DNA of 64,000 bases from Marsupella aquatica (lineage: Eukaryota; Plantae; Marchantiophyta): the NCBI GenBank assembly GCA_973895155.1, contig OZ316892.1, positions 572,917 through 636,916 of the forward strand, written 5' to 3'. Below, piece after piece: positions 34,801 through 59,244 of this stretch (within the stretch, counting starts at the first letter, position 1; each line of letters begins with the position of its first letter). Position numbers and translations under genes: made by a program. The notes under the pieces are model-generated. The model was not told where the DNA came from. It made no database searches and saw only the letters and a program-made list of their open reading frames with translations.

Positions 34801-36525
34801 GATGCTGATTTCTTTTCTTTCTCCAGTAGTTTCAGCAGACTCTGCATGCCTGGTTGCTGCATCGGCAAGTCCTCCTTCCTGGGCCTAAACACCTGCTCGA
34901 TCGTAGGGCTAACAGGTGGTTGAGGCTTCTCAGCCAACGGCCTCGGCGTTGGAGCTTCCTCGGGTGCCCTTACCTGCAGGGGAAGTACCGGGGCAAAAGT
35001 CTGACCTCTGGCATACCGGCACAACAGCGGCATGTGATAGCCAAGCCGCGACACGCTCCCCATGCCGATTACCTGCTGCTCCTCCTTTAAGATCTTCTTC
35101 AATTGGTTGAGGAGGTATCCGTTGTAGTCCCGGCTTGGGTCTGGCCTTTCTGCCAGATAGACCTGTGCCTTGCCGATCTCTGCCCTCGGCAAGTTACAAT
35201 GCATGGTCACCCGCAAGAAGTCGATCATCTCTCCTATGTGCGGGTTGGTGCAGGTGTTCCGGAAGAAGCCATTCTTCGTTGATGGCCCGGGGAACGACCG
35301 GAACTCCTTGTCAGGCAAGGTCTTCCTGGTATCAACTTTGGTCTTATTGCCTATCGGCAAGCCAAACACTTCGGCAATTACCTTGGGAGTAAGATAGAAA
35401 TCCTTCCCATATATCCTCGTGCAATTGGTCTCGGGTTCCCATGACCCCACGAATTCTAATAGGTCTGACTCCGGTACCTCCGGCTTCAGCCATGGTAATC
35501 TTACAAAGGCCTCTAAGCCGGATCCGGCCATGAAGCCTTGGTACTTCTTGGTCTGCATGGCCGTGAAGCATGCATCCTCCTCCCGTGCAAAATGTAGTTG
35601 CACCTCCACCGGTAGGGTTGCCGCCCAGCCCTTCCAGGTGTCATCCCTGGTTGGAATGGCCTTGATGGGATCGACCTCCTCCTCTTCGGCTTCTCCCTGC
35701 CTCCTGCTCTGCTGCTCAGCTGGCTTCTTTGGTGCCGCCGACCTCGTTCTTTTTGTCGGGGTGGCTTCATCGTTGACGGCTCCCTTCCTCTTCATCTCTG
35801 TTGCCGTGGAGGTTTCTCCTAGCACCATTGCCTGGGTCCACCTTTCCGTGCTACCCTTTAATTCCCAGTGTATGTCGTTGCAGTTCTTGATGGCCTCTCG
35901 GATGCCGACGACGCTGTCTTTGCAAAACAGAAGATCGTCGAGTTGATTGGAAGTAGGCGTCCACAGGAACTCGTCCTTGATGAGTTCGCCTCCTAAGAAA
36001 GCCGTCTTCTGCAGCTCCCACAATCGAGCGAGCTCCTGCCGTTCTCGAGCTGCCCTTTCTGATTCCTCGTCCTCGTAAGTCTTGATGTACTAAGTTGCCC
36101 GTTCGAATAGGCATCCCCAGAAATGTGCCACTTGATTGACGTTGCTCATACCCTCCTTAGGTCGATCGTCGGTATCTACTCTCTCCCCGAGTGCTTGCCT
36201 AAGCAACTAACAGTAGTTGGCCTCCCGTAGTCGTCTACCTAGTTCGTGCTCGCAAATGAGCCACCATCTCCTGCAAGCGCTCCTTACCCCTCTCCTCTGC
36301 CGGTCCTTCTTCCCGTTGATCCTTCCTAGCCGCCGATGCTTAACGCGCCCTAACCCTAATCGAGTTTTCACCCTCAGCGTCCTTACCTCCGGCCTCGGCC
36401 CGGGTTCCATGGTTGCCCCTAATGGTTTATATTTTCCTTGTTTTGTCCCTATACTAAGGTGTTCCTAGGGTGCCTTCCTGCTTTACCCACTTAACTGGCC
36501 GAGTGATTCCTGTCTAGGCATCACA
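31871..36525 (-). mobile_element. Giant solo LTR, copy 3 (4655 bp), ORF disrupted
   Basis: Same termini, TSD TCGGG (31866-31870, 36526-36530). Interrupts the Helitron helicase at VASSG|IAS. Confidence 0.95.
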
Positions 36526-37849
36526 TCGGGTATTGCAAGTCTTTTGTTAGATGGAGGTCGCACCGCACACTCAAGATTCAAGCTACCATTGAAACCAATC
36601 TCGACATCGACATGCAGCATCCAAAAACAATCTGACCTTGCTGGATTATTGCGGAGGGCAACTTTTATTTTGTGGGATGAAGCACCCATGATCCATCGGC
36701 ATGGAGTGGAGGCATTGGATAGAACTTTACGCGACATACGAGATAATGACCGAATCTTTGGAGGGGTTGTAGTTGTATTTGCAGGTGATTTTTGACAAGT
36801 GCTTCCAGTGAAGGCAAGGGCAAGTCGTCCAGAGATTGTGGGGTCATGTTTGAAGAAGTCTTATGTGTGGAATAGTATACGGACTTTGAAGCTAACTGAA
36901 AATATGCGGGCAAGAGGAACTAACGCATCTCCTGAATTTGGTAATGTTACATTTGTGGAGTGGCTACTACAATTGGGAGATGATAAACTCCCAAAACGAG
37001 GGCCTTCAAATAATCTTATTACTTGCCCTGAGTCTATGGTGGTGGATGGAGGACGTGTGGAATCATTGATTCAGGCAATATACCCGACTCTTGCTAATGT
37101 GGACGATAGGTTCTTAAGTGAGAGAACTATTCTCGCGCCGACAAATGACAAGGCACTAAAAATTAACGACTCTATCTTAGAAGGACTTCCTGGGGAATCA
37201 AGTGAGTTTTTTAGCATTGATCGTCCAGATCAGCTCGAAGGGGAAAATTTCTACCCTACGGAGTTCTTGAATACACTCACACCGAGTGGTCTGCCGCCCC
37301 ATAAGTTGGTATTGAAGGTTGGATGCCCTATCATTTTACTTAGGAATATAGATCACTCTTTGGGGTTGTGTAATGGTACTCGGTTAATTGTGAGAGCAAT
37401 GAATCGTCGTGTCATTGAGGCACGTGTTCTTGCAGGAAAATATGCAGGAACCCTTACATTTATCCCACGGATACCGTTGACTTCTGACGAGTCACTTCCT
37501 TTCTTATTACGTAGGGTCCAATTTCCAATTCGAGTGGCATATGCAATGACCATAAACAAGGCTCAAGGTCAGGTCAGACTTTAGAACATGTAAGGTTGCA
37601 GCTTTCAAAGCCTGTATTTAGTCATGGACAGTTGTATGTAGCATTCTCAAGGGCAACATCACCTACAACTATCAAGGTTTTACTTTCAGATTCCGAGGAG
37701 GGTCAAGCAAAGTTGACAAAAAATGTTGTATATGATGAGGTTCTTTATTGAACACTTGAATAAATATTGTATCACTTTTGTATTAATCTCTTTGACTTTT
37801 TGCCTGAATTATATGTTTGCAATGCACAACCATGTTTGCCTCCCCTCAA

Positions 37850-38197
37850 AATCTTACCCTCACCTAAACATCTAACTTGCTCTCATCTCAACATGTTGGC
37901 CTCACCTCAACATCTAACTTGCTCTCATCTCAACATCTTGCCCTCACTTTGACATCTTGCCCTCACTTTGACATCTTGCTCTCACCTCCAAATCTTGCAC
38001 TCACCTCAACATCTTGCCCTCACTTACAAATCTCGCCCTCAACTCAACATCTTGCCCTCACCTCCAAATCTTGCACTCACCTCAACATCTTGCCCTCACC
38101 TTGACATCTTGCCCTCACTCGAAATCTTGCTCTCACCTCGACATCTTGCCCTCACCTCGACATCTTGCCCTCACTCAAAATCTTGCCCTCACTCAAA
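37850..38197. repeat. Minisatellite of about 19-bp units in the Helitron 3' region
   Basis: Head-to-tail variants of ACATCTTGCCCTCACCTCA. Confidence 0.9.
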
Positions 38198-38323
38198 GTC
38201 TTTCGTGCAACGCACAGGCATGGGGCTAGTATTTAATAAATTCAATAGCGCCCGGCGCTAACAAAAACCAAGGGCATACTCGTACAGTGTGGAGGAAGTT
38301 TGACCTAATAGAGGAGAAAATTG

Positions 38324-41300
38324 CTACCCTTCAGTGTCATATTTTGAGCTCTCATTCTGGGAGCTATGACATCTGTCGGTCGACTCTGCCTCATCATCAA
38401 TATACTTGCTTCTAGAAACATCATCTACGTAGGGGTTCCTCATGAACTTCTTGTCTACTCCCCTAAGAAGCCTAAGTCCTTTTGTTTCCCAGCAGAGTGT
38501 TCTAAATTTCTCTACCTTCCTCGCGATGTTCTCAGCGTATGATGGCAACACAAACGGCTTCTTGGGAGTGATGATTACATTTTGAGCCACTTTCCTCCGG
38601 AGTTGAAACCGTTTTCTTTGGTTCCATTCTGACCTGCTCAAAAGAGAAGTGGAAGAGAAAGAGGAAGTAAGTACTTAACCGATAGAACCGGTGGAATTGA
38701 TGGTTAGCCAACAATTGAAAGGATAAAGGAGCTTACGAGAGACGAAAATTACTCGGAAGACTCTTCGTTGTCCTCCGTTGACCCATCATGTCGGGTTTCC
38801 TCTTTCCCGCTGTCATTGACATCCTCAGGAACATCATCTTCTGGCGTCCCATCATCTTCGTCCGAATTAAAGTTGAGGACAGATCTAAGTCTATCTTTCT
38901 TTTTTCGTCTGGTTATTTGAGGAGGGGGAGGTTGTGTCTCCAAAGGTTTGGGAGAAATGAGATCCAAAAAAATCCTCGAAGCGGTCTCAACAAACTCTCG
39001 ATGATTTTCTAACCCAATGACAAAACGGCCCGAGTAATCCCCAGCAATGAACGTACTACCTGAGCCAACGGTCCAATCAATTACAATATCCTTAGGTATC
39101 GTAAAGAGTTCAAGGACAGTTTGCATAAAACCAACCGGTAGTCGGGAATTCCCAGTAAAATGGAGTTCAGGACAATGATCTTCCTTCAAAGATTGTAGCC
39201 CAATAAGGTTTGAGATTGAAGGATCTTCAGCGCTAGATAACGGCTTGAATCTTGGATCCTTTGGGACCTTTCCTTTAAAAGAAACTCGACAAAATATATC
39301 CAGTCTAAGAGTGAAGACCTGCAAAAGTTGACAAACCAACTGGATTTTAAAAATCTCTTATTCATGAGAGAAGACATCCTAAGAAAGAAAGAGTAGCGTC
39401 GGGCGCTAGTATAGCTCTACTCAGAGAGAACATTTACCTGGACATCTGTCTTGGATCTGTACATTGGGACAGACATGAAAACATTGTGCGTATTGATGCA
39501 CATGAACTTCTTGGATTGTTGACATGCAGAAATGACCTATGAAATCTGATCGTGGTCATCCGAGTATAAGATAGCGAGCATGCCGTCATCGGAAAGGAAA
39601 GGGTCCATCGCCCGAAAAAATGATTCGGCTGCTGTGTGATCTGTGACATTCCATTTTGGGACCCGACGGTCAACAATTGTGGGTTTCAAACCAGTTGGGA
39701 GATAGATGAAACCTACATTCACCCCAAATGATCGTTCCTTCCCACCTTGAATGATTCCTTTATCTCTACACCCCGATTTGATCAAATCCTTACCCCACTT
39801 CTCAGCATCTGAGACCCAATCTGGCTTCTCTTCCTTACTAAATGCACTATCAATGAATTCTGCCAAGCTTGATTCGACCATACAGTGTCTTCCGAGTTTG
39901 GTCTTGAAAGTCCCCACATCCCGTTGGATACCGGCCCCAGAAGCATTATCTCGCGATGATTCCCAGGCATCGATGGTCCTTTTCTTCTTCTTCTTTGTGC
40001 TTGTAGCATCCACAGGAACTATAACCTTCCCCTTCTCAACGGGGGTGATGGGGTCTGGATTGGCACCAGTGTTGGCTTCAGAGACTTCTGGTGTTGCATC
40101 GACTTTTGTGTCATCCGTGGCGGCATCAGATTTTCGACCACCTACCAAAAAATGGTGTCAAGCACAGAAAGAGTGTTAGCGCCAGGCGCTGACCAAACAC
40201 CCACATTAATTTTGGGAAATAAGACACATTAAACTTACGACACATGATAGCGCCAGGCGCTACCAAAGAAGGAAGTCGGAAGAAGGAGGTGTAGCTTACG
40301 TTTTTTCGCAGACTTGGCACTAGCACTTGCCACAGGGGCATCCGCCTTGGCTTTGGCTCTTGGTTTTTGGCTTTGATCAACATGAACCATTGTGGTTTCA
40401 CATTTTTTTTGCAACTCAGTCGTCGACGAGTTGACATCCCCCTCAATTCCTGGCTTCATGTCAGAGACAAGTTGTCTCGGAACTTGGGATTTAGACAGTT
40501 TATGGAAAGCATCCTTCTCAGTGTCGTCAAAAGGAGAATCCCATCTGTCGGTGTCAAGATACCAAGGGCAATGAATTCTCTCCCACTCGGACAATTTCCT
40601 CGGTGGAAGTATACCCTCAACGGGATACATTGAATACAGTTTGGCCAAAATATCTCCATCTGCGCAGATGACCCAATTCTGGAAAGCAGCTGGGTAAGCC
40701 CAAAAATAGTCAGGCTTCACAATCTCCATGTGCATGAAGAAACGATAGACATATCGTTTTGCTCGCTTTTGATTCTTGAGTGTGTAGTCTTCCTTGTCCG
40801 GGTACTTGGACATCCACATCGTATTGAAAAACTTACCTTTCACTGCATCCCCAAATTTTTTGAAATCATTCACTATTTCAATGAGTGAATCATAAGACTC
40901 ACACTTCCATTCCTCCAATCGATTGGAAGGAATTATTTCACTGATTTGCTGGAGGGCAGTCTGTAGCATACCAATGGCAATTCCCTCCACGCTATTCCAA
41001 GTTTGCCAAGTGTGGCACCACTGCTTCACAGGGTCATCGCTAATGCTTTGCGGATGAAAGAACTGCTTCCTGAGCTCTGGCATGCAATGCGCTACTAACA
41101 AAGTGCTCCTCAATTTGGGGTCGAGGGTAGAGACTGCTGTAAATAACCTGGCACGATCCATGGTATAGACAACCGCATCCGGTTTCTTCTCGCGTTTGTT
41201 CACCTCTGTCATCAGATACATCTCAGCACAGGTTGTCATGAAGTCTTCAAACTCAGGACTCAACAAGGGAGTGATCTTTGAGACCTTGATCACCCAATCC

Positions 41301-44300
41301 TTCGTTGCTTCTTTCATCATGACCGCATGTCGTTTGGATGTCTCTTCCTGAGACCAAGGATTTCCCTGAGTGGTAGCTGTGGTGCGTCCCATGGCTCCCT
41401 AAACCCAAGAAACCCCCCCAGCGCAAGCCGATTCCCGCAGGTTTCGCGCTTGGCGAGGCCGTTTCTGTGGCTTAGCGGCATGGGACGCTGCTAACCTCCT
41501 TCTACTACTACTATTAACATTTTACACACATATATTGGACAGATCCTTCATCGGGTCATGAGATACGTAGCCGGCCTAATCTAGGCCTTTCCTTGTCTTC
41601 CCCTCCGTCTTGTTAGGTATGTTTGGATTCCGCCGCTGGAATGATCCCCAATAGGCTTGGTTAAGCCGCTAAGACCTCTCTCAGCTCGACACATCCAACT
41701 CTCACTCCCCTGCTTACTTTCCTTCCTCTGTTAGTTGATGTGGGCACTCTTCACACAAGTTAATGCGACACACAAATAGCAAAATGACTCCTTCTGACTG
41801 AGTCATACCATGCACTTGTCATACAAACAGTACATCTCATACACAAGCATTTAAATACTGCGGCTTGTTTCTTCAGCCACTCTGTTTGGTTGTCGGCCCG
41901 CCGCTGTAGGTTCTCCATCTTCCTCGTGATTTCCTCCAACTCCTCTTGGGTCTCATCCAGGTCCTTACGTGCCTCCTCCAGCTCGTTTTTGGCTTCCTCC
42001 AATTCCCTGTGGGCTTCCTCCAATTCCTTCTTGGTGGTAGCCCTCTCCTCCTGGGTTGCTCTTAGCTCCTTGTCGAGCTCCGCTACGACCTCAGACTCCA
42101 TGTTATTCATCTTGGCATAAGTCTGGTCGAGCTGGGCGTCCTTCTCCCGCAGGTCGGCCTTGAAGCTGGCCGTTAGGGACGCAAGCTCCTGCTGTAGCGC
42201 AATAATCCCTTGATAGGATTTCCCTAACTCGGCCTCCTTCTGCTCAAGGGTTCTACGGATGACCTCGAGCTCTTCCTTCAACGCCCTCTCCCTTCTCTAA
42301 GTCTCCATCGTGACCCGGTTGTTGACTGCTATATGGGCCTCCTCTGCGTCTCTCAGCTCCTTCTTCCATTTCTCCCTATCCTTGATTGCGTCGGCCAATT
42401 CTCCCTGGGTCTGAGTCAGTTTATCCTTGATAGTCTGATTATCAGCCTGCGCGGTGTCCAACTGCCCCTGCATGATGTTCAGCTCATGCCGCTTAATCCG
42501 CAGTTCATCCTAGGCTTTCTTGGCCGCCCTTAGATCTTCAATCTCGGCTTCCATCCTCCTAAGCCGCCGGATGACCTCGTCCTTCTTGCTTCTCTCTAAA
42601 GCCACCGCTTCTTCTAATTGGTGCTTCTCCAACTGCTCCCTATGGAAAAAGGGTCCTACCTCCAACTCCTCCCCAAAGATGCCAAGCGCAAGTTCCCCAC
42701 ATATCTCACCATACTCCATGGCTCTATTCTTAGCGTAGGTGGAGTAAGTAGAAGTGATCGGCATCGCCCAACGCGGCCTCTGCTCCCAAGCCGTCTTGCG
42801 GACCTCTTCAATCGTGGCTAGAGGTTTGCTTCCTTTTTTGGCTAGCCGCCTGATGTCCTCCGGCCAATCTCCTCCTGGAAAATCCTTTTCCCTAGCCAGG
42901 GCTGCCTCCTCTGCTTCCCTAAGTCGCTCCTGAAATTCCTGTGCCGTCTGCTTTATGCCGTCAAAGCTCGGGGGAGCAACATCTGGTGGGGGAGACTCGG
43001 GGCTACTCTGCTGGTTGGGGTCCCCTCGAACTACCCTTGGAAGTGTGGGGATAAACCGGCCACAGGTCCTTACTCCTGGAACGTGATGGTCCGACCCATA
43101 GCCGGAGTTATCATGGCTGCAGTCCTCCACTGCCTCCTCCACCTCTTGGACTTCCGGCTTCTCCCTCTCCTCTTCGTCGGTAGGAGCTTCAGGCAATTCT
43201 GCCTCAGATTCAGAGCTTGAGACTCCCACGTACATTCGAACACCCGGCTTGGATTCTGGCCTGATTCTCTCCTATTTCCGGTAAAGGGGTTTTCCCTTCT
43301 AAGTCTGCTTAGGTTGACCTCTGGGGCAGTGTCCTGTATTGGTGCCGCTGCCGAAGCTGGTGCCAGTGCCGTCTTTTCCTTCTCCAGCATCTTCAGCAGA
43401 TTCTGCATGCTTGGTTGCTGCATTGGCAAGTCTTCCTTCCTTGGCCTAAACACCTGCTCAATCGTAGGGCTAACAGGTGGTTGAGGCTTCTCTGCTACCG
43501 GCCTCGGTGCTGGAGCTTCCTCGGGTGCCCTTACCTGCAGGGGAAGTACTGGGGCAAAGGTCTGACCTCTGGCATACCGGCACAACAGCGGCATGTGATA
43601 GCCAAGCCGCGACACGCTCCCCACGCCGATTACCTGCTGCTCCTCCTTTAAGATCTTCTTCAATTGGTTGAGGAGGTACCCGTTGTAGTCCCGGCTTGGG
43701 TCTGGCCTCTCTGCCAGATAGACCTGTGCCTTGTCGATCTCTGCCCTCGGCAAGTTACAATGCATGGTCACCCGCAAGAAGTCGATCATCTCTCCTATGT
43801 GCGTGTTGGTGCAGGTGTTCCGGAAGAAGCCATTCTTCATTGATGGCCCGGGGAACGACCAGAACTCCTTGTCAGGCAAGGTCTTCCTGGTATCAACTTT
43901 GGTCTTATTGCCTATCGGCAAGCCAAACACTTTGGCAATCACCTTGGGAGTAAGATAGAAATCCTTCCCATATATCCTCATGGAATTGGTCTCGGGTTCC
44001 CATGACCCCACGAATTCTAATAGGTCTGAATCCGGCACCTCCAGCTTCAGCCATGGTAATCTTACAAAGGCCTCTAAGCCGGATCCGGCCTTGAAGCCTT
44101 GGTACTTCTTGGTCTGCATGGCCGTAAAGCATGCATCCTCCTCTCGTGCAAAATGTAGTTGCACCTCCTCTTGTAGGGTTGCCGCCCAGCCCTTCCAGGT
44201 GTCATCCCTGGTTGGAATGGCATTGATGGGATCGTCCTCCTCTTCGGCTTCTCCCTGCCTCCTACTCTGCTGCTCGGCTGGCTTCTTTGGTACCGCCGAC

Positions 44301-46280
44301 CTCGTTCTTTTTGCCGAGGTGGCTTCATCGTTGACGGCTCACTTCCTCTTCATTTCGGCTGCCGTGGAGGTTTCTCCTAGCACGGTTGCCTTTGTCCACC
44401 CCTCCGTGCTACCCTTCAACTCCCAGTGTATGTTATTGCAGTGTTTGATGGCTTCTCGGATGCCGACGACTCTATCTTCGCAAAATAGAAGATCGTCGAG
44501 CTGATTGGAAGTAGGAGTCCACAAGAACTCGGCCTTGATGAGTTTGCCTCCTAAGAAAGCCGTCTTTTGCAGCTCCCACAATCGAGCGAGCTCCTGCCGT
44601 TCTCGAGTTGTCCTTTCTGATTCTTCGTCCTTGTAAGTCTTGATGTACTCAGTTGCCCGTTCGAACAGGCATCCCCAGAAATGTGCCGCTTGATTGACGT
44701 TGCTCATACCCTCCTTAGGTCAATCGTCGGTATCTACTCTCTCCCCGAGTGCTTGCCTAAGCAGCTGACAGTAGTTGGCCTCTCGTAGTCGTCTGCCTAG
44801 TTCGTGCTCGCAAATGAGCCACCATTCCCTGCAAGCGCTCCTTACCCCTCTCCTCTTCCGGTCCTTCCTCCCGTTGATCCTTCCTAGCCGCCGACGCTTA
44901 GCGCGCCCTAACCCTAATCTTGTTTTCACCCCCAGCGTCCTTACCTCCGGCCTCGGTCCGGGTTCCATAGTCACCCCTAATTGTTTATATTTTCCTTGTT
45001 TTGTCCCTATACTAAGGTGTTTCTAGGGTGTACTCCTACTTTACCCACTTAACTGGCCGAGTGATTCCTGGCTAGGCATCACAGTAGCCGACTCCATGTC
45101 CATCTTGAATTGTCGAGAATAGGATTTAATCTTATTCTCGCATAAGATATACATAAGTGCTCCTTGAGGCATTTTCTTGGAATACCACGATCCTTTTCGA
45201 GTCTTCTGCATCACCTGCCCAAACTTCTTGAAGTTTGCCCCATCGATGATTGATTTGTAGTATTCTAGATCGTTGGACAAAATCCTCTTAATTTGGTCTG
45301 CATCAAGTATCCAGGAAGGTTCCACCACGGCCTATCCAAGTCTACAAAAGAATTGTTCAGTCAAAAGCGCCAGGCGCTAGTAAAAACTACACTATAAAAG
45401 ATAAGGATAGGTGAAATTCAAAGAGAGACTTACTGGTTCACAGTATGCATAGCCGCCTCAATCTCAATCAAAGATCCCTTTTCACCCTTGAAGATAGTAC
45501 ATTGCACACGCGGGTGATACTTGCTATCTTCCGGATTTTCTTTTGTAACGATCAACCATGCGTAAAGTCGATGGTTACCGTCAAAAACGTAAAACATCTT
45601 ATCTTATAACACCATGAAGTCTGGATCGGCCGCACATTCAGCTTCTAACTTCTCATTCTTGGCCACCCACACCGGGTCTCAGGTTGCTCGAATTTCTGGA
45701 GTACAGGTCTGGACATTCCCATTCGAATCTGCCGGCTGGACATAGAACAACATTCCGATTTTTGAGTTGTATCCTGTGCTACGAAAAGAGTCCTTCAACT
45801 TTTCAATTGAAGGACTTCCCTTCTGTAAGGTGCGGACAACTTCCAAGTGAACCAAGCGGCATTGGAATCCTTGGGGGGTCTTTGTCGTGCCCTCGAAAAT
45901 CCTTGCCAAACACCATAACGTGCTTGGAGATAATGTCGGACATCGTCAGTGACATTTCTCCTCGATCTTCCACAACGTATGTGTTGAGATCGTCCATCTT
46001 CGCTCTCCTGCTCTTCAGAAATGTGACTACCGTGACTGTTTCGGGATCTTGGGATGCTGTAGACCGTGTCACACGACGACTGTCTACAGTTCCAGAAAAC
46101 GAGCACTCGGATGTCTGGGAATGGATCTGCTCTCTCTACCCGTTAGCACTATACCCATGCGAGGTGGTGGGGAGGGTCCATGTTTTGCATACACGAAGTG
46201 CTTCACGATCGTGATGAGTACCTCATTCGTACCGTACTTCTTCTAGAGAATTCTTTCACGAAGAACCTCCAAAACGGAAC
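38324..46280 (-). pseudogene. Spliced gene: ParB/Srx-like N-terminal domain + beta-class N4/N6 DNA methyltransferase-like C-terminal domain; disrupted by stops, a frameshift and solo LTR copy 4
   Basis: IEKLKDSFRSTGY...MFYVFDGNHRLYAW (DGNHR at 45568-45582). VGFIYLPTG...FFRAMDPFLSDDGMLAI, then RLPVGFMQTVLELFTIPKDIVIDWTVGSGSTFIAGDYSGRFVIGLE (39052-39078). Frame-preserving GT-AG introns at 45433-45342, 40299-40142 and 39437-39319. Start codon uncertain. Confidence 0.72.
41378..45083 (-). mobile_element. Giant solo LTR, copy 4 (3706 bp; about 0.95-kb internal deletion near 41847; most diverged)
   Basis: Same termini, TSD GTAGC (41373-41377, 45084-45088). Confidence 0.95.
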
Positions 46281-47088
46281 CTAAATACAGCGGACAAGGG
46301 AGGTGGGGAGAGTATCATCTCTAAACTATCCCCTCGATACATTGATATCTATTTACGACATTCTCCTGAGCACCACTTGTCAATTCTGGATTAGTTGTTC
46401 GAATACCGTTGGCATATCTTCAACGTTACGCGACCTAACGTTACCGTTGAATATGACCGTTAAAGAATAGTTCGGTGATTTTAATCTATATTCCTAGGTC
46501 AAATCTGATATTGGTCAATATAGTGCCTGGCGCTACCCAAAACGATCAATATTTAAACCCTAAATTTTCCCTAGGTTAGGACAACATTGACCCCGAAGTA
46601 TAAAATAAAAAACAAAATGAATACAATTTTTGAATAGTTGTCCTTAAATGAATGTCATGATTACGGTTTCAGATTAGCGCCCGGCGCTAATATTAAATGG
46701 GCACATTTTGGTAAAATTTAGGGTTTAGATAATATTTGGAAAATAGCTGCAAACATTAGGATCTATTCTGAAACCCCGGATAAAATATTCCAGTTTAATA
46801 CCACAATTTAGGGTGTGGGTTTGAGTAGCGCCTGGCGGTAAACATATATTGCACCATTTTGGGTCCATGTTGGAGTGAGGATGTTTGAGTAGCGCCCGAT
46901 GCTACTCAATTAAGATGATTTAATAAACATGATTATGCTCTTTGGAAATGGACATCTTAGGCTCATTAGTGTAAATGTCATTGACATAATGACAAAAAAA
47001 AATTATTGTGTCAGATGTGCTTTCGACCGGTAGTGATTCTGTCGTATTCTAACGGCTCTGACAAACGGATTATTCACTATGAATACCA

Positions 47089-50000
47089 TTGTGTGCATTC
47101 AAAGACATCATTCATTATTGTGAACTGAGTGTTTTTGGGTTGGATGATCTTACAATGTCGAGGTCAATCATTCTGACGCGTCCGTCTACCGGTGACCTTG
47201 TATCCATTCCATTGTCGGCCAATGACGTATACAAGCAAGTTAGTGAGAATTATCTCTGTGGGCGCTTTGGTTTGGATTTGAACGACATTGAGGACATTTT
47301 GGAGGAGGGAAACGGCGATGAAACCTCTAATTTCACTGCTTCTTTTGATGTTGATGACGGGATTCATTTTTGGCACCTGAATGCAGGAATTCGGTATTCT
47401 ATTGTCATTCGAAAACCAGTCGCATCCGATCTCCCATCTTCATCCAAACCCTTTGTTGATGTTGTCTTGCTTTCAGATAGCGACGATGATGGACCTTCTG
47501 GTTTGCCTAAGCGTAGTGCTAAACCCCCTCACACAGTTGTTAAACAGGAGGTTACCCCTGTTAAACAGGAGGTTACAGCAATTTTTACCAAAAATTCCAT
47601 TGTGTATCAGAGAAGTGCAATGGATACCATTCTCAAGTCAACTGGTTCCAGTGAAATCTCGAGGTTCATCGCGGCTGGGGACTTCTGCCATGAACAAGTT
47701 GGCTGTTTGCCAAAGAAATACAATGGAAATATTGTATTCGAGTTGCCTCCTGCGGGAGCTCTTTCAAAGGGGTCACGTCTACGCAACATGGACCGGTCAA
47801 AGGATTGCTACATTTGGACCAGAATATTTCCTACATCAGCTAATGTTCATCCCAAGAAATATTGGGAATTTGGTAAAGTAACATGCACTGGTTCCATTGA
47901 GTGTAGGAATAATACTTGCGACTATTTTCGACGGAAGCAAAGGAGGAACCAGAAGGCCTGGGGTGGAACCCCCAAACTTGGCGGGCAACATCGTGTTGGC
48001 TCCTTCATTGACGAAGGTGGAGTTGTTTGCCAATTTTGTGATCAAGTTCCGTTTTGTGTCCAATCCTGTCCAACAAGGTTATTTTACATGTACCCTCAGG
48101 TTCTAGTTGACTCAGAAACCTGTACTCACATGTCCCGCTTGGCAATTCATATGGGGATCCACAACCATCCTTCAAGAAAGGTGTTTTCTCGGAGCGCAGA
48201 GAAGATTGTTGAGGAGGTTATCAAAAAGAAATTGGAAGGAAATCCAATTTTCACCCCTGCTGGTGTAAAAAATGTGGCGACAGGGTCCTTTGTAAAGTCC
48301 TTGTGTGAAAGTGTGGAAGATATTCAAGATATTGAAGAAACAGAGATATTTGAGTCGCTCATGGTAGTTTCCACACCCCAGAAGTTTGCGTCCCTCTTTC
48401 GTAGTGTTAGACAGGACCAGAAAGGTCGAGGTGAACTTGATTTTCTTGTTCGGTATCAAAGAAAGAAATATCAACATGCCATTTCTCCAAAGGTACCTCC
48501 TACCAGGTCAAGGATCTCAAGAAGACCGTCCTCACATATTCAAGATGACTTCGGTCGGCCATGGATCAGGCGTCGATCTTTTGAGACAAATGCAACCTGG
48601 TGGAAGTCTCGAAGGTGCTTGGGTAAGTTTTGATGTGATGAAACAACTCACAAAAGACTGGGTTACTTTTAGTGCGCATATTTATGATCACAACTATCGC
48701 ACTTTGTGTACCTTATTTACCTGCGAACTAAAAGCAGAGGATACAGAGTCGTTCGAGAAGGCTTGGAGACTAATGATTGAGGTGTCCAAGGAGAATGGAT
48801 TAGAAAATCCGATTATTCATGGATTCATGGCGGACAATGCTCAAGCTGGTTGGTTGGCAATCCGAAATGTCTTTTTTGGAGGGCATCCAAACCCAAAGCG
48901 TGAGCGAACTGACGCATTCCATTTCTACCAAGCCTTCCATCGCCATTCAGTTGAAGGAGTGATTGAAGAGAGTCAAGCAGAGCATCGTAGGCTTTGGGAT
49001 AAGATGCGAAATGCCCCCACGTTTGTAGAGGCTTACAGAATTTCAAGGGAGATTGCTTTGTGGTGGCAGTCGAGTAACTGTGTCCCGGGGAAGCTCCGGA
49101 TGCTCCAAAGTTGGATTTCACGGTGGGTCGTCAGGTGGAGGCAATGGGGAAATTTTATTCGTTTGGTAAGTTAGTTTACTTTGCTTTCCGCTCTTTAGGT
49201 ATTGTTGTGCTATATTCTCATTACAAAATGTTTGTATCCATATTCAAATATTACAATACCATAGCATCCTTTAATACTAGCGCCTAGTGCTATCATTTAT
49301 TCAAACTGTCATATGACACAATACGACGCAATAAGTTGTTCCTTAATGGACAGTGCCAATTTTTACTTCTAGGTACGTACAGACTCCACTTCACTAGCGC
49401 CCGACGCTAGTGTTTTCTTGTTGCGTAACAGACAATTTATTCTATGTAATTGCAGAACAAGAGTGTCGAAGAAGGGGCTAAGATTCCTAATTGTACAGGA
49501 TCAGAGTTCGTGCACGCAAGTATGAAAGCATGGGTAATGAAGAAAAAGGTTGGCCTCTTTGAGGCATGTGAAATGGACCAAAATTAAGCTATTTCTCAGG
49601 TTGCTACTTACACTGCGTATTGGAAAGGGTTGCATAGAGGAAAAGGTCCCACAATTTGGGAACTCGCTTTCCGATCAGCGGACCAGGCAGGCTCCCCCAA
49701 GTTGTATGAAGATGCAATGATTATGCTACTGTCCAATGCTGTCGAGTTTGACTTGGAGAGACGTGCACCTCTCAATGGAGACGTTGTCACCAAATCTTTG
49801 AAGAGGAAAGGACATGCATCTGGGAATATCTCGCCACAAGACTCCCATAGGCATGATAAAATCCTTGTCACCTCGCCCAATACTAGATCGATGAAAAGGA
49901 AGAATCTTAATCGCACGACGTTTGATGCTATCCCTGGCCCCACGCCTCAAGTTAATCCTGTTGTTAATCTGTCTGGAAGTGACATTTTGGGCGGTGGAGA

Positions 50001-53000
50001 AGATGTCGATTTCAATACCCCTCCTGCTCGAGACCGAATGCGTTCAACGAGGCTTCCCCAGACTGCTCCCTCCGTGCTTCAGCATCCGTTACAAGAGTGT
50101 CCTGTCCGTGAGACTGAGGTTGCTCCAGCTACATGGCAATTACGTCAAACTTCAAAATTTGGCGCTGGTCCTCAGTGCAACGGATCATTTTCCCATAATT
50201 CTGAAAGAGACGAGTGTCGCAATCACATGAAAAAAGTTGGATTTCCCTCACCACATGGTGTTATCGGCGTTGTTGTCAAAGGACAACGCATTTTCAAGGG
50301 GGAACCCATAACCGAAATGATTTGGTTTTGCCCAAACAATACATGTTACAGAAGCCGCCCGCGTCGAGGTGTATTGAACCTGCCCCCTGTGGACTAGCTC
50401 AAAATAGGGTATGTAAGAAACTCATCATTTTTTTGCTTTTTGTACAAGGATAGTAAGAAATACATTTTAGCATTAGTAAAGTACTTAGGGTTTGCAACCC
50501 TAAGTCATTAAGGAAGGATAGTAGGGAATCATGGAAGAGAAAAATATGTTGTTCTAAGAAGATGTAAAGGGATAAGTGAGGTCTTTATGGTAGGGCAGCA
50601 AATATTCTTTCCTTAGTTAGGATAGGCGACTAAGTCGGGACCGGAAAATGACCCAACACCTGACATCTCATTTTTGGCTAATATTTCTCCCATGGGTGCG
50701 GGGAGGTCCCTAGGGAACCCTGAAAAATTATGAAGTGAAGTAGGGTCTCAACCTAGGAATTGTGAGTATTTTGGCTGAACTTAAAATAACCATCTAGCGG
50801 GTCCCGGAGAAATTAGCCAAGGGGTAGATATTTTTGGTTCGAGGTTAAAATTGGGTATAGTATAGCCCATAATATCCCTTGAAAGTCTAAGAAGTAGTTT
50901 ATCAACTTTGGTTAGTTTTTGGGAGCACCTCAAAGATTGGGAAAAGTAATGCAACCTATAGATATGGGCAAACTTAGGTATTTTTAGAAAAGTCAGTGCG
51001 GGGTATTTAGTGCGTTTGACAAATTCAGGAGGGAGTCCTATGTCCAAGGATCCCATAACTATGCTCAGAAGTTCTTTTAGACCTATGAGTGATTTTTGGC
51101 ATGGCTTTAAAAAGGGCTAGTACAAAGTTTTCTCCCGCGAGAGAACCAAATTGTTTCTAAGTGTGGAAACGCGACGACGCGGCTGCGACGAGGCTAGCAC
51201 GAGGCAGGAAGGAGTCTAAGCACGAGGGCGGCTGCGAGTTGAGTGATTAGACTATGAAATCACATGGTGGAAAATCTATGGTGGGCTATTGTTGCTCCAG
51301 CACGAGATCGGTTAACTTAGGCAATGTGAAATTGATGCAGCAGCTATCTAGTAAACGTGATCTCTGCCTGGATGCTAACAAATTGAGAAAGGGCAGGCAC
51401 TACATAGGCTATAGAGCTTGCTGCCAAGGAAATGTGGATGTTGCTGGCTGATTCACTCTACTGGCTGATTCAATGTGCTGGCTGATTCAATCTGCGGGTA
51501 GGTAAGCTTGTGCTGAGTAAATTCAAAAGAGAATGGCTGGCAATTGAGAATCCATGTGTTGAGCATTGATCAGCTGCTGCAATTTACAGTAGTTGTGAGC
51601 TATGGCTACTCCTGAGAAAATCAATCACAATCCAGCCCAACAATTAGAAGAGACTCAGTCATAAATCAGAGGAGAAGCTACTGCAAAAATCAGTCAAGCA
51701 ATTAGTCAAGGAATCATCCTCAAATCAGCTGCACAATCAGGCACGATGCTAAGCTCTATAGCTTCTGGAAAGACTGGACCTTATGAGGAACTCTCTCAGG
51801 TCGACACCTGGTATACACATAAGTGTAAACCGGGACCTATGACAGTGTAATTCGGAGCCCTTTTGCACACAAGGGATTGAGAGAAGGAAAATGCCATAAC
51901 TTGAGCTAGGGGCATCCGTTGGGGCCCATATTTTTTGTGCCGATTCAAGGGAAGGTAAAGCATCGTTGAGTGAAGGTAGAAACCCAGGAAAAGAAATACC
52001 CAGAGATGTTTTAAACCGTCGCCATGGGGGGTCCCACTAGCTTGCAAACAGGAGCTGCCAAGGGGGAATGAATACCAGATGTAGGGCCAAACACTTTGGG
52101 TACCCATACCACTTTAGTAAGGCTCTAGGGAAGGGTACTTACCTTTGGTCGAAGGTGCAAGGCCATCAAGTTAATAGAAGTGAGTATAGAGGGTAGTTTG
52201 CTTAGGGTAGTATAAGGGGTACAAGTCAAATAAGGCCAACTTTGACTAGGCATAACTTTGGACTCAAGTACTCTTTTTGCGAGCTTTCAAGTGCGTTGGA
52301 AAGCTGATGAAGAGGACCATAAGTGGGAGCAGGTTTGGAGGTCAAAGCATGCAACTCATGTGTGGCATATTCCAGGGCTTGGAAGGAGTCAAGCAATAGG
52401 TTGTAGAGTGAGCTATGAACTATAGTTTGGACTTGGTGTGTTAGGAGGACTTGGGGGAGGTATAGTTGGACCCCAGGTCAAGCTTGGTGTGGTGTGAAAG
52501 GAGAAGAGTATATAAGGTGGAAGATTTCATTTGTTGAGGACCAGAAGTCTCATTCTTAAGTGTAAGCTCTACCTTGCAAGTTGGGGCTAAGATTGAGAAG
52601 GGGAAGGAGGTCCATGCTTAGTGTGGAGAGTGTGTAGTGACCTTTTATGTAAGGATTGAGTATACAATAAAAGGATTCTTCCAATCTTCATTGTGACCAC
52701 TAAGTGTGACTAAATGTGAAGTGTTTGAGAGCAAGAGAAGAGTCCATGCTAGGATGCAATCTTGGTCTAATCGTGAAGGGAATGTGCTGGTACACAACCA
52801 AGGCCAGGGAGGCAAGGTTAAGGTGGAGCACTACTTTGGGGTTTAGAGATGATTGTATCTTGAGGGTGGAAAGTACCTTGCTTTGTGTGAGAACCAAGAG
52901 GAAGAGTTCTTTGCAAGAAGAGTTTTTCTAGAGCTCAAGGGGGTGTGTGGACCCAAACCAAGGCCAGGGGGGCAAGGTTAAGGGGTAACACTACCTTGAG

Positions 53001-53933
53001 GATCTTGAGGGGACTTAAGCTTGAAGAGAAAAGTACTTGGGGTTCTTGGGTGTTTGTTTTAGGGTCTACTCTAAGGTGACAGCTTGGAGTGGATATCCCC
53101 CTTGCTAATCCTTGGAGTAGAGGAGAGAGAAAGAGTGGGAGTGCAAAAGTAGTCAAGGTGACTACCTCTCTAGAAGTGGAGAGTTGAAACTACTTGTGTA
53201 TGGTGTACTTAGACCTTGCATGCACATTTCAGAAGTTTTGTCAATCCTTTGTGACCCTGGTATGACATGGAGCAAGTATTAGGTAGTTTTTTAGGGGAAA
53301 AGATGCTTAAGCTCCTTGACAAGTGTTTGACACCCCCTTTCCCTGATGTGCTTTCCGTTTTGAAAGGGACAAATGTTTCGGAAGACGAGCTGCAATATCT
53401 TCTTGACAACGGAATCTCCCTAGTGCGCGGAAATGAACATACAACTAGACCCCCATCAGATTTTGATCTTCGAATCAATGTCAATATCTTTCCAGAACAT
53501 GTGAATCTTCTCGAACCCAATGTTCGTCTCCGAAGCCGGAATGGGAGGAATACGGTTCCTTGGTCAAATCTTACCCAGGTGTCACATGAACATAATTGCT
53601 TCTGCAAAAAAAGAGACGATGTCCATTCAGGAAGAGTGGGATGTTGTGATTGGGAATGCATGGGGAAAGCAGTTTAAGGTGCAAACGCACGAAAATATGC
53701 GGACGCCAAATTGTTACTTTGTTCAAATTTGCATTTTCCCCACTTGCTCGTGTGAGGATTTCTACCGGCGGCATTCTCGGAAACATCCATATATGCCTTG
53801 CAAAAATTTGTATTGGATTTTCCTTACCGTTTTCAAACTAGACGTTGAGGAATCTACATTGACCAGCCAACCAATTCTCACTGTTGGAGAGGTTCGGCTC
53901 ATATTAGAGAGGCAAAATGCTCATGGTTTATAG
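47089..53933 (+). pseudogene. MULE-like transposase (GCM/WRKY-like Zn region, DDE core, C-terminal SWIM), frameshifted and LTR-interrupted
   Basis: CTGSIECRNNTC...CQFC...C...GIHNHP; WVSFDVMK...GFMADNAQAGWLAIRNVF...DAFHFYQA; PTCSCEDF...PCKNLYWIF. Intron at 49166-49455. Confidence 0.72.
50388..53332. mobile_element. Solo LTR (2945 bp), third family
   Basis: TG...CA ends and TSD CCCCC (50383-50387, 53333-53337). Removal restores NLPPFPDVLSV in the transposase. No credible ORF. Confidence 0.87.
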
Positions 53934-54549
53934 CATGAATCATGATGATGTAGGTTGTATTATTGGTCCAAACGGTTATATTGATTTTGTCATATGTCAA
54001 CGGTATAGTGTTATTTATGTCGCGTCATGTTTTGTTAGCGCCAGGCGCTGATAATTTTGTCGTTTAGGCTACACCGTTAAATATCATCGTGTTGTGCTTG
54101 ATGTTCTCAATGCCAACTATTTGTTTCCTAAAATACCAATAAGATAGCGCCAGATGCTAGTCAAGACGTTCGCTTTTATTACCATATAATACCATAAAGT
54201 TTTGGGCTGCGTTCATTTCGTATTATTTTTATATATTTTGTTGCCGATTGTGGTGGGACCTACCATTTTTGTGCGCATTCCTTGACATTTTTATGTATGC
54301 TCGCCCTTGTTTGTGTTGGGATATGAGGTTCAATTATTATGTGGTTCAGCGATTCATGACAAGGTATCCTCCCTCACCGCAATGGACTAACTCCAACTTA
54401 AACAATTCTAAACTCCTGATTGTGTGTTCTTTCCCATGGTACAAGATGTTTTTTCCTGGTAACAGCATAAGGCAAACAGGAAAAGTATTTGTTGTTTGCC
54501 TGTTTGCTGTCTCAGTCGCTATACCTAGACATATGAAGAAGACACTGAC

Positions 54550-56871
54550 CAGTGTAAAGGAAAAGGATTTTCCTTTGGTCACAAATAACTTGCGTGTTAA
54601 TCGAGTACCGACACTTTCTATCGTAGTAGCACTCTCCAGAATCCTCTGGCCGTTGGGAAAGTGGAATGAGAGTCCCATCAATGAGGCCCACACACCTTGG
54701 GAAGCCTCGCTTTGAAAACTCCTCTCATATCTTTTGTCTTTTAGTACGATGAGGCCATCTCAACTGGTCCTTCAATGCAGTTTCCATGGCAGTAAAACAA
54801 CGAGTTGTGAAATTACAGAGAGATCCTGCACTAACTCCCCAAGTTGGAATGAGACAATTTAGACAAGCTCCATTGCCTTCATGTCCCAAACGATCCAAGG
54901 TAACAACTAGCTGCCATTCCACTGGAGCCTGTTCATATGGTGAATCATTGACAAAAACTGGATGATCCTCAATTAGGTGTACTAAAGCAAAGAAAGAGGC
55001 TTTGTCCATTCAAGTCACGAAACTCGACTACCTTAACACTTAGCTCCGGCGTCGTTGACTCCGACGCCCAGCTCCCTTATGGTCCAGGCCCGGATAGGCC
55101 ATCCGGGGAGGGCTTAGCATGGGGAGACTTGTGGGCAATGAGACGTGGCACTAGCGAGGCAAGGAGCCAAGCTGGGGACACACACTAAGGACTTGAACTA
55201 GCGGATAGTTGGTCGGGTCAAGGAGAAAGGGGCTGGGCTCAAGGATGACCGTCTGGACCTCTGGATGGACTTTGAATTCTAAGGGCTTGAGTGTGAGCTC
55301 CTCTTGGGCCCAAGGCCAATGGAGTTGACACCATGGGCAACGGACGCTGGGGGCACAAGTTAAAACCTGATCTGGGTTGGGCCGGTCGGGGGCCCCAAGC
55401 GGAAATGTGACCAGAGGGCCTAGGCATGAGCATTGGGTCGGCCCGATCACAACGGGCTAAGGCACTCCGCTTGTAGACGCCTAACGAGAAAGTTATGGAC
55501 GTTGCTAGTTGGTGGCGTGCCCATTATGCGCGATAGGATCCGGTTGGGGGCCAAATGTTTAGGGACCAAAGCTGGTCCGGGGGTGGTAGGTCTCCAGAAG
55601 CATATATGAGGGGAGTGGTGTCTCCCTAGGGGCTAAGGGCGAGCCAAAGTCGTGAGCCGCAGCTAAACCCTAAAGGAAACCGCCAAACGGAAATGACAAT
55701 ATCTTCCCAATGGGAAGTCCATTGGAGGACTTCTTGGGTGCGTTGGAAAGCTCTTGAGGAGGGCTCGCCCTCCTCAGCTCAGCTGGGTCTGGGGGTACCT
55801 TGGGTTCTCGGGGTTTGCGGGTGTTAACTCGTCTGCTTGCCAAATCCCGCCGAACAGCAGCCAAGCCGCGTTCAGTCTCTCAAGGGAGCTTGCGTTGGGG
55901 AGGCAAGGCCAAGTAGGTGCAGAGGTTGAGTTCCAAGAGTGTTTGGCCCCTAGGCCATCAGTGGCCAGGGGCAAACCGGGAGTTGGATGCTAGAGTCGGG
56001 GCCATTCTAGTCCCGGCGTGTTGGGACAAGCTTAGGACAAGCTTTAGGACAAGCTACTAATGCTATTTTGGGCCATGAGCATGTCTTGGGGTCAGGGTGG
56101 ACAGTTAGTGATGGATAGGTACAAGGGGGAACCCGGGCCGCACCCAAGGAAGGAGCTATTCTAGACGAATAGTGGACGTGGGTTCTGGTTCCGGCTTATG
56201 GCATCGGGAGGACCTATCGTTGACCTATTTACCAACGTCTGTTGAGCTTGAGTTAAGATGCTAGACTTGGCGAGTTCTAGATCCTGAAGGGTTACTTACC
56301 GAGGTGCTTGGTTGCTTGTGCAGATAGTGAGGACCGTTGAGTAGCGGTAGTGTTAGAGAGCAAATATGACTTTGTATGGGAGGGGTCGCTGGCGGTGCAA
56401 GGGGGCACTAGGGTGCTTGCTCGAGATATTCCATGGAGGCGTTTGGGCACCAAAGGCACTTAGGCGCGAGTGTTGGGATTGGTGAGGGCGCTGGGTGGCA
56501 AGGTCCACCACTATTCGGGTCATCTGCCTGAATAACAGATGTGGAAGTTTATAAAAAAACTGCAAGACAAACTCCCAAGATTTGATGGTGATAGTCTTCT
56601 CAACAAAATATCTGGTGTTTTCCATCACATTGTACAACTCAAGAAGGTCATCTGAATTGCCCTCAAGGTCATACATGTCTGCTGTAGCCTCGGAGTCAGA
56701 TGATGAATAAAAATCTTTGTTAGACGCACAGTTGACTGAGGGTGTTGTAGCATCACTCCAATCGCCTTCACTCCCGGTATGTAGTTCATCTTCACTAGAA
56801 TTGTGCAATATTGTATTTAACATCAACATCACAGGCCACATTGCCCTTTGGCGATTAGACATTCGAGGCAT
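54550..56871 (-). pseudogene. PIF/Harbinger (HARBI1-like) transposase, truncated and interrupted
   Basis: FRQMTR|MDKASFFALV...QLVVTLDRLG...GFPRCVGLIDGTLIPL..P....YYDRK.RYSINTQVICD. Confidence 0.85.
55013..56512. mobile_element. 1500-bp solo-LTR-like insertion with AGT...ACT termini
   Basis: Flanks are ATTCA (55008-55012) and ATTCG (56513-56517). Removal restores the Harbinger frame. No credible ORF. Confidence 0.7.
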
Positions 56872-57115
56872 ATTTCTCCTTCATGCACAGACAATGGACA
56901 TGAGAAATTCAGACAATAGAGGTAACATTTACAGTGCATACATGTCACTGCATCTAAACATTTATTACACGTGAGAAAACTCAGTTGGGATGTACAAAAT
57001 TCTGGATTACTGAACCCTACACTGCTAGGGTACGTATGCTACATTCACTGACAAATGCAATGCGGGTTGGTACAGAAAAACTGGTGATGCACAACATGGT
57101 AATGTGGGAATTGCA

Positions 57116-57755: not shown

Positions 57756-59244
57756 TCTACATACAGAAAGAACTGATTCTGGAAGTAATAACAGAGTTGG
57801 AATATAGTGTCAATTAATTTTACAAAGAGTTGAAGCTGAACAACAACTGAAAGCACTCACCTCGGTGCTAGTTGTTGGAAGGAAGAAGCTCAAAACTTGT
57901 GTGTAAAACACAATGTGATGAAGATGCAAATTGAATCCTGAAGCCATGTAAACACATTTGATTTCACAACAATAATTTTTCCTGAATTCCGGAAAAATTG
58001 CATACAATTTACGCAATCTGTATCGCAACCAAACAACTCACTCTGTTGCTAAAAAATGTAAGAGGTTCAGCACAAGCTTGTGTAATCCACGATGTGATGT
58101 CGATGCGCATGCTAATCCCATAACACAAGCCATACAACGACAATGTCAAGATGAAGATTTTTCCGGAATCCCGGAAGATCTGCAAACCTCAAGCAAAACC
58201 AAACTACTGACCTGCTGCTCAAAAGTAGAAGAGATTCAGCTCTACACTTGGGTGCTCCACACCTTTAGTCGCTAGGCAAGTTGCGACCATACACAAGCCA
58301 TACGCAAGACAATGTCACGACTTCATAAATAAAAAATTCTGTGAAATTTTCATACACACGCAACTTGAATTGCATTTGCAAAAACTGACTTATTGCTTGA
58401 AAAGAGGGCGCTATCGAGCTCACGATGTGCAGGTTGGAGCTTGCGGATTGCAGGTTGTAGCTCATGAAATGCAGGTGCGCTAGATTCACCACTCCTCTAT
58501 TGCGATCGCCATGGCACAGTTTTCTCCTCTCCGTCTTTGATGAGAAAGAGAGAGCGAGTTCAAAGTTTGGTCCTAGCTACCTCACGACGTTGGCACTACA
58601 GTCCAACAAAGGCACACAGTACTTGCGCCAATGTTAACGGACTGTGGTTAAAGTTATGACTTAAGGCAAATGCCCACGGTGGGGTTTCCTTACGGGAGCC
58701 AAATATCGGCTCCCGTAATTTTGACGGGAGGTCCTGTAACATTTGGCTTATGGGAAGGCCATAATGAGTTACGGCGTGGGTTTGAGACAACTATTGGACC
58801 CGACTTTTTGGGTTTTGCTCATTGAGTTTCTTCAACCAGTCCGAGTAACGAAACCCTCTTGGGTTGAAGATGCTCTAAGTGTTGCGACGTGTCCGAAACC
58901 CTCTTGGATTGAATTTTGCTCCGAAGTTGAGTTTGGTTTGCTCCTGAAAGTTGAGTTTCAACCAGGAACGTAAATTTCCCCAAGCATCAAGCCAAAAAAG
59001 AGAATGGAAGGAGTTGGTTTGCGACCCCTAATAATAATAATTGAGAGCGTTTCGACTCATGAGAGGGAAAGGAGGCCGGTCCGTCAGGAGGCCGGTCGCG
59101 ACATGATACACAGCGATGACAGGGTCTCCGCTGCAAATGCATCCGTCGCCCTCCCGAGGCCTGGTTCCAACCTGCCCTGCAGGCGCATCAGTTGCCTTGT
59201 CAAATCGATATCGGTGAACGGAGGGGAATGAAGCAGGAGTAGCT

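Follow-up and report, generated by a model that had tools for sequence, protein, structure and literature searches.

A decayed Mutator-like transposon of the liverwort Marsupella aquatica with a putative ParB-like/methylase accessory gene and a 15-bp palindrome dispersed in its non-coding DNA

Why would a plant DNA transposon carry, beside its transposase, a gene that appears to combine a ParB-like domain with a DNA methyltransferase (methylase) domain? The question is raised by a locus in a 64,000-nt stretch of the liverwort Marsupella aquatica genome (GenBank assembly GCA_973895155.1, contig OZ316892.1, positions 572,917 to 636,916 of the forward strand; hereafter the window, to which all coordinates refer), in which an earlier examination of the letters alone, the sequence-only reading, had proposed a transposon-encoded self-marking or anti-silencing system. 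We find that the locus represents a repeated DNA transposon of Mutator-like type, here in a decayed copy that includes an accessory gene, and that a 15-bp palindrome, TAGCGCCNGGCGCTA, recurs 13 times in the element, always in non-coding DNA. The accessory protein, as a ParB-type dimer on these palindromes and with a pseudo-methylase domain that binds S-adenosylmethionine (SAM), may have shielded the element from silencing; we prefer this reading tentatively, at a probability somewhat below even. The palindromes, a second solo long terminal repeat (LTR), in the transposase, and a fourth intron are additions to the sequence-only reading. The features of the element are as follows.

38231..54200, approximate: Mutator-like element, with both genes and the palindrome span; about 9.3 kb without the two LTR insertions
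38324..38633, minus strand: exon 5 of the accessory gene, ending in a stop codon; basis GT-AG and phase only
38634..38752, minus strand: intron 4, 119 nt, no palindrome; needed to reach 38324
38753..39318, minus strand: exon 4, SAM-binding half of PF01555, then an acidic tail
39319..39437, minus strand: intron 3, 119 nt, one palindrome
39438..40141, minus strand: exon 3, linker and putative catalytic half of a beta-class methylase
40142..40299, minus strand: intron 2, 158 nt, two palindromes
40300..45341, minus strand: exon 2, split by the solo LTR; predicted all-helical central domain of about 400 amino acids
41378..45083, minus strand: solo LTR insertion in the accessory gene, 3706 bp, TG..CA ends, GTAGC duplication on both sides
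45342..45433, minus strand: intron 1, 92 nt, one palindrome; bridged by Riccia P0046
45434..45990, minus strand: exon 1, putative ParB-like domain; 5' start approximate
46136..47154: divergent-promoter spacer with four palindromes (46521, 46675, 46826, 46890)
47155..53933, plus strand: Mutator/IS256-like transposase pseudogene
50388..53332: second solo LTR-type insertion, in the transposase, 2945 bp, TG..CA ends, CCCCC duplication
38246, 39394, 40177, 40248, 45365, 46521, 46675, 46826, 46890, 49278, 49395, 54036, 54145: copies of TAGCGCCNGGCGCTA

The minus-strand open reading frames (ORFs) from 38324 to about 45990 form one interrupted gene that faces away from the transposase. When the LTR and four in-phase GT-AG introns (92, 158, 119 and 119 nt) are taken out, 1140 codons can be read from 45945, and the frame is kept across the LTR site (MESAT runs directly into TQGNPW). 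The single spliced gene proposed by the sequence-only reading, along with its splicing in silico as a check, is thus confirmed in frame, except that the introns number four, not three; the head-to-head arrangement with a transposase of the Mutator-like element (MULE) type also holds, in that the two genes diverge from the spacer. Among the homologs from the liverwort Riccia, P0046 aligns as a single chain from exon 1 through exon 2, the LTR site included; P0043 runs on weakly (E 0.07) into the motif-IV exon; introns 3 and 4 are bridged by no homolog, and these joins rest on splice signals and phase. The copy is a pseudogene, as had been cautioned, with four in-frame stops at 45681 and 45606 (exon 1), 45334 (exon 2) and 39539 (exon 3), and a frameshift in exon 1 near 45866, placed by eye against Riccia P0063 and P0057. 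Only this copy has the stop at 39539: a Gln codon stands there in essentially all contig depth of all four public runs, which indicates that the family is intact at this position and that the present copy has decayed.

With up to 3 mismatches allowed, the palindrome TAGCGCCNGGCGCTA is matched 14 times in the window, and 13 of these matches fall between 38246 and 54159, compared with 1.13 expected per window and at most 4 in 100 shuffles, figures that carry the limit that the pattern was read off the sequence before counting. None of these 13 copies lies in coding DNA, which makes up 77% of the element (p ~6e-9); all are in introns, spacer or flanks, the remaining 23%. The fourteenth match, at 3940, was rejected (3 mismatches, score 14.8 versus 18.9-26.1, inside a retroelement ORF). 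The palindromes stand outside tandem arrays, with none of the 12 tandem rows covering one, and CAAA occurs within 7 bases on one side of 7 of the 13 (background 0.08, a post hoc comparison). Nine of the 13 mismatches to TAGCGCCNGGCGCTA are C>T or G>A, as expected of decay after inactivation. The core of the palindrome holds CCWGG and GCGC, which we take to be sites of known bacterial methylases. In P0006, the nearest neighbour in the tree, the protein reads LAPGA past the same exon, which is TAGCGCCNGGCGCTA in translation (protein sequence only). The C-terminal tails of P0017 (LASALA) and P0018 (LALALA), from sister subfamilies, represent intron read-through and may correspond to a 14-bp variant of the palindrome, the codons being ambiguous. 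That introns of both genes contain the same palindrome argues most strongly for their belonging to one element, and a self-recognition model, which requires a target, finds a candidate in the 13 non-coding copies.

In the accessory protein, exon 4 matches PF01555 in Pfam (35.8 bits, cut-off 26.7, E 1e-8) over profile positions 163-219 of 221 only. Two further profile comparisons agree with the PF01555 SAM-binding motifs I-II; the PDB sequence matches of this exon are DpnA, MboIIA, CcrM and PvuII, all 10 of the best family matches in the Atlas search carry PF01555, and 136 phage records are matched. The landmarks of the domain are YLPT at 39693-39704, DWTVGSGST at 39078 and IGLE at 39018, and we consider it likely that SAM is still bound. 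Exon 3 has no significant profile match to known methylases, and word-based protein searches found no longer relatives of the methylase half.

At the motif-IV position, where (D/S/N)PP(Y/F) is expected, the window and other copies have YLPT, Riccia P0043 has DLPT and Calypogeia P0059 has SVGT; these three versions were taken in the alignment register of the window, P0043 and P0059, the only two homologs that reach the region. Thr replaces the aromatic residue in all three, and the first residue is Tyr here. The sequence-only reading had noticed YLPT, and the state turns out to be that of the family: private decay is ruled out by its presence in other copies in four runs, and at the Tyr codon no variant reaches a 20% share in any of the four. 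Among the differences listed for the motif-IV exon, 18 of 25 are synonymous versus 0.29 expected under neutrality (p 1e-5), the 25 not being independent events. The synonymous excess together with the common YLPT suggests a domain that is under constraint in spite of lacking the canonical motif, likely a conserved domain that is not a canonical writer of N4-methylcytosine (4mC) or N6-methyladenine (6mA). Standard catalysis has probably been lost, by analogy with the N4CMT enzyme of bdelloid rotifers, in which a change of SPPY to APPA abolishes activity (PMC8885841; published work is cited here and below from the parts of each source that were available).

For the N-terminus, exon 1 contains a DGNHR box at 45582, which is common to Riccia P0046, and matches P0046 (E 5e-18) and P0063 (E 9e-10) within a 17-kb subject. 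By language-model comparison, the nearest Atlas clusters of P0046 residues 95-230 are unnamed eukaryotic clusters (0.95), DUF3723 (0.94) and ParB_N (0.91); structure models of DndB and Noc fell below the bar for naming this region. P0046 has no match in phages and P0063 none in PDB sequences. A phage gene tried as a ParB reference proved to be DUF4317, and PF02195 was present in none of four phage records. A ParB-type N-terminus is likely, as a lead consistent with the DGNHR box. As a separate observation, the neighbours of P0046 95-230 are fungal DUF3723 and sponge-rich unnamed clusters, which hints that DUF3723 proteins start with a ParB-like part; a literature search pairing DUF3723 with ParB found no paper. 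DUF3723, whose clusters are among these nearest matches, is core cargo of Starship elements (PMC9156397).

Between the two terminal domains lies a helical region with 87 relatives by phmmer. The 29 that were looked up comprise five from Riccia sorocarpa, two from Calypogeia fissa, one spurious nematode repeat and 21 without organism, none being named as algal; P0040 was rejected as a homolog, being a repetitive nematode protein, and word-based protein searches found no longer relatives of the domain. The Riccia and Calypogeia homologs of the accessory gene are dispersed, and in a tree of 24 chosen rows a 100/99 split divides the Calypogeia members between its two sides, as old transposon subfamilies would show. 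The model of the P0046 homolog, with a predicted local distance difference test score (pLDDT) mostly of 80-97 over residues 201-500 and 58-94 up to 620, contains about 400 helical residues, and its best structural Z, 7.3, is to unrelated helical proteins.

The transposase is best read, on model-based grounds, as Mutator-like. Its layout consists of a ubiquitin-like N-terminus, a GCM-like zinc region, a DDE core and a SWIM-like tail, with a D..D..DxxH..E series of residues seen by eye that we take to be the DDE-type catalytic pattern. The best match of the model of P0097, which is weak (pLDDT 55), is the transposase of ISCth4 (Z 8.7, root-mean-square deviation 8.9, 103 aligned; Foldseek E 6e-3), presumably a member of the IS256/Mutator family, and a weak model also matched the GCM domain 1odh in Foldseek (E 0.027, prob 0.84). 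Pfam yielded no MULE match, and no SWIM match for the CxC..CKN tail. Four relatives share 50-63% identity with the transposase. A ubiquitin/PB1/CIDE-like fold (Z 5-6) was noted at the start of the transposase family, in residues 1-86 of P0097, corresponding to 47155-47400. The gene has an intron at 49166-49455 with two palindromes, and its lesions are a frameshift near 48460, a stop at 49585, which is absent from most other contigs, and an inferred frameshift at about 53550.

Both genes and the spacer are found in many contigs of all four public runs at 80-99% identity, which identifies a repeated element; the contig depth of the neighbouring Helitron is similar. The 3.7-kb insert at 41378-45083 is ruled out as a part of the element by its LTR ends, target duplication and empty-site contigs, the empty site being joined in two of the four runs (X1, X2); this solo LTR is internally deleted relative to the 4.66-kb copies elsewhere in the window. 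The empty site of the insertion at 50388-53332 was seen in one of the four runs (X1). The left side of the element adjoins the 3' end of a Helitron at 38230. Terminal inverted repeats (TIRs), usually long in Mutator/IS256 transposons but absent in some families, or a target-site duplication (TSD), typically of 8-11 bp, were looked for in the window and not found, and the sole inverted match of the ends is 29 bp built on a palindrome (38238-38266 versus 54030-54057).

How might these parts work together? The accessory protein would form a ParB-type dimer and load on the 13 non-coding palindromes of its own element, a model suggested by bacterial ParB, which uses palindromes of similar form, parS (PMC9178275); the ParB fold would then act as a cytidine triphosphate (CTP) clamp and spread along the element. 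With regard to the palindromic sites in cis that go with a ParB/Srx clamp, the element has 13 candidates, and binding of the protein to them is likely, by this analogy. The element would thereby be shielded from host silencing, as by VANC21, which binds motifs in the introns, spacers and ends of VANDAL elements (PMC5735166), and the methylase domain would bind SAM with no standard writing of 4mC or 6mA.

Several results weigh against this account, in addition to the limits given above for the palindrome counts and the exon differences. The sequence-only reading had assigned the C-terminus to the beta-class amino-methylases, and this stands for the SAM-binding half and is less secure for the motif-IV half: against a reference of four phage methylases, hhalign sets YLPT/DLPT on DPPY with a score of 12.4, within the range of 20 shuffles (8.6-20.2). 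The same reading's ParB-like N-terminus keeps the DGNHR box and the cluster lead from the Riccia homolog but has no match in Pfam, PHROGs, NCBIfam or PDB sequences, so that profile comparison bears out PF01555 and not ParBc; this part is also modelled poorly (pLDDT <50), P0046 holding part of the domain only. The model of the central domain has neither a helix-turn-helix (HTH) nor a known-fold match in PDB, VIA-wide or BFVD searches, in which the 806-residue model was searched whole, a null result that does not amount to demonstration of a new fold. No contig spans both genes in the four runs, and a second full locus was not recovered from two metagenome scans, one viral scan or the run contigs. 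Finally, the CpG ratio is 0.51-0.91 in the element versus 0.30-0.68 in neighbouring repeats, without separation, and CpG and CHG ratios together did not set the element apart from its neighbours.

Alternatively, the palindromes and the ParB-like protein could serve transposition, bridging ends that have little or no TIR, with chromatin not being the target. We regard this as unlikely, although there is no long TIR, palindromes lie near both ends, the outermost ones face each other with flanks that match over 29 bp, and Mutators without TIRs exist (PMC6446971); furthermore, the transposase appears from its model to have a GCM-like DNA-binding region of its own. The distribution of the sites argues against end-bridging, given that 9 of the 13 either lie in introns or are over 5 kb away from both approximate ends, as VANC motifs are (PMC5735166), and a conserved methylase-fold domain would have no obvious role in synapsis.

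Next in order, and likewise improbable, is self-marking by a methylase that would be active with an atypical motif IV and would write 4mC or 6mA, or methylate another substrate, at or near the palindromes. Motif I, which serves SAM binding, is intact, as is the acidic residue that follows it; the motif-IV exon is under constraint, Riccia P0043 keeps the catalytic Asp (DLPT), and the palindrome core includes the presumed bacterial methylase sites. Against this stand the Thr in place of the aromatic residue in all three versions and the Tyr in first place in this family, at the two positions whose change inactivates N4CMT (PMC8885841). For the self-marking or anti-silencing system originally proposed, the palindrome provides a candidate target, active self-methylation is not supported, given the non-canonical motif IV, and the general design proves to be already present in the algal literature; the caveat of the sequence-only reading, that the family may bind DNA and leave it unmethylated, is likely the main case. 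That the accessory gene belongs to another mobile element and adjoins the Mutator by chance is very improbable: ends and target duplication were not found, nor a second locus with both genes, but the palindrome occurs in the introns of both genes, the spacer and both flanks and almost nowhere else in the 64 kb, and in the spacer several divergent contigs align at a depth comparable to that of both genes.

The preferred reading, self-recognition leading to protection from silencing, is supported by the occurrence of the same architecture on algal transposons. In green algae, the source for this class of accessory proteins is reportedly Iyer et al. 2011. The brown alga Ectocarpus has Sola1-1_Ec32, with a 1104-aa ParB-like and N4/N6 methylase protein encoded opposite the transposase, and its authors, who point to green and red algae as well, suggest that such accessory proteins form a class that binds and modifies its own element (PMC12477816). 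As in the Marsupella element, a single gene for about 1100 amino acids combines ParB-like (here at the level of a lead) and N4/N6 methylase domains on the strand opposite to a DDE transposase; the Ectocarpus element, however, has a Sola transposase, a 282-bp TIR and a 4-bp TSD, whereas the liverwort one is Mutator/IS256-like. The available part of that account mentions neither dispersed palindromes nor a degenerate catalytic motif, and the likeness is drawn from description, not from sequence. Plavaka elements of the red alga Bostrychia also carry ParB-like and PF01555 domains together with inverted repeats, which were proposed as binding sites, and homologs occur on Mutator elements of Chondrus (10.1101/2025.02.11.637652). 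In Plavaka, the domains reside in separate genes with other partners, PAG2 (PF01555 and SET) and PAG3 (ParB-like and 2-oxoglutarate (2OG) oxygenase), with tandem repeat arrays beside PAG3, whereas the Marsupella gene joins both in one protein, on either side of a helical domain without a match, and the palindromes stand singly in every large non-coding part of the element.

A further parallel is VANDAL21 of Arabidopsis, likewise a Mutator with an accessory gene, VANC21, no clear TIR, and a motif confined to introns, spacer and termini (13 of 13 copies here). VANC motifs are asymmetric words of 8-9 bp in tandem repeats, in contrast to the 15-bp palindromes outside tandem arrays, no protein of the window matched a VANC-related Pfam family, and anti-silencing, demonstrated for VANC (PMC5735166), would be shared by the present system only by extension. 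With bacterial ParB, which loads on 16-bp palindromes (PMC9178275), the element has in common a GxxR-type box and several palindromes of 15-16 bp in cis, but there is no ParA, no recognisable HTH and no curated profile match, and the box reads GNHR, not GERR. Marchantia DN4MT1, with an intact TSPPY (10.1101/2021.02.12.428880), and bdelloid N4CMT share with the accessory protein a bacterial-type beta-class amino-methylase domain in a eukaryotic gene with introns; these are host genes with intact SPPY and demonstrated 4mC, as opposed to a transposon-borne, ParB-like fusion from which the motif is absent. The methylase domains of DIRS1 elements provide a precedent for inactive transposon methylases (PMC4738411). 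A review of Mutator elements lists accessory ORFs, and the word methyltransferase is absent from its main text (PMC6446971).

The design itself has already been proposed for algal transposons; what is new here is an exact candidate site and a constrained, non-canonical methylase. No land-plant report of this design was found in the searchable literature, most subscription papers being outside the search, and within this scope the element is likely the first land-plant case of a ParB-methylase transposon accessory gene, on a Mutator-like element. Two algal genome papers of 2025 propose that accessory genes with ParB and methylase domains let transposons bind and modify their own DNA; neither reports a test in its available part, and one names VANDAL as the only demonstrated case. 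With the present element the design would reach what is likely a land-plant lineage, one in which Riccia and Marchantia offer tractable models, and would gain a 15-bp candidate site; the methylase is predicted to be a constrained pseudo-enzyme. A single protein and a single oligonucleotide would suffice for direct tests of binding, CTP dependence and anti-silencing. More speculatively, and in our estimate doubtful, liverwort Mutators could possess a full ParB/parS self-recognition system in which a CTP-gated clamp loads on palindromes in introns and slides along the element; its helical domain would have a new fold, its pseudo-methylase would not write a mark but read the cytosine methylation of the host or block it, and the mobile methylase pool might be the source of the 4mC enzyme of Marchantia sperm.

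The surroundings of the element are rich in other mobile DNA. The 4.66-kb LTR has copies at 5549-10205, 24395-29054, 31871-36525 and 41378-45083; three are solo with 5-bp duplications, and one adjoins a primer-binding-like site and gag. It encodes a long ORF of its own, which is unusual for an LTR (in copy 2, 1225 aa stop to stop, with a coiled-coil tail and no Pfam family above the cut-off), and it far exceeds the Mutator in contig depth. To the left of the element, a nested Helitron extends over 10848-38230, with pieces at 10848-13603, 30879-31895 and 36526-37751, a 19-bp tandem array at 37839-38196 and a hairpin-CTAG 3' end at 38230; it is interrupted by a CACTA-like element and two solo LTRs. 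The assignment of the pieces to Helitron Rep/helicase and of the interrupter to a CACTA-like element is assumed from ORF motifs. Next to the right end of the Mutator, the minus-strand segments 54346-55009 and 56353-56880 presumably derive from a PIF/Harbinger-like nuclease (GLIDGTLI motif), of which they are remnants. Among apparent host genes, the closest is represented by 59218-59898, the first exon of a likely gene for plastid ribosomal protein L3 (weak Pfam match).

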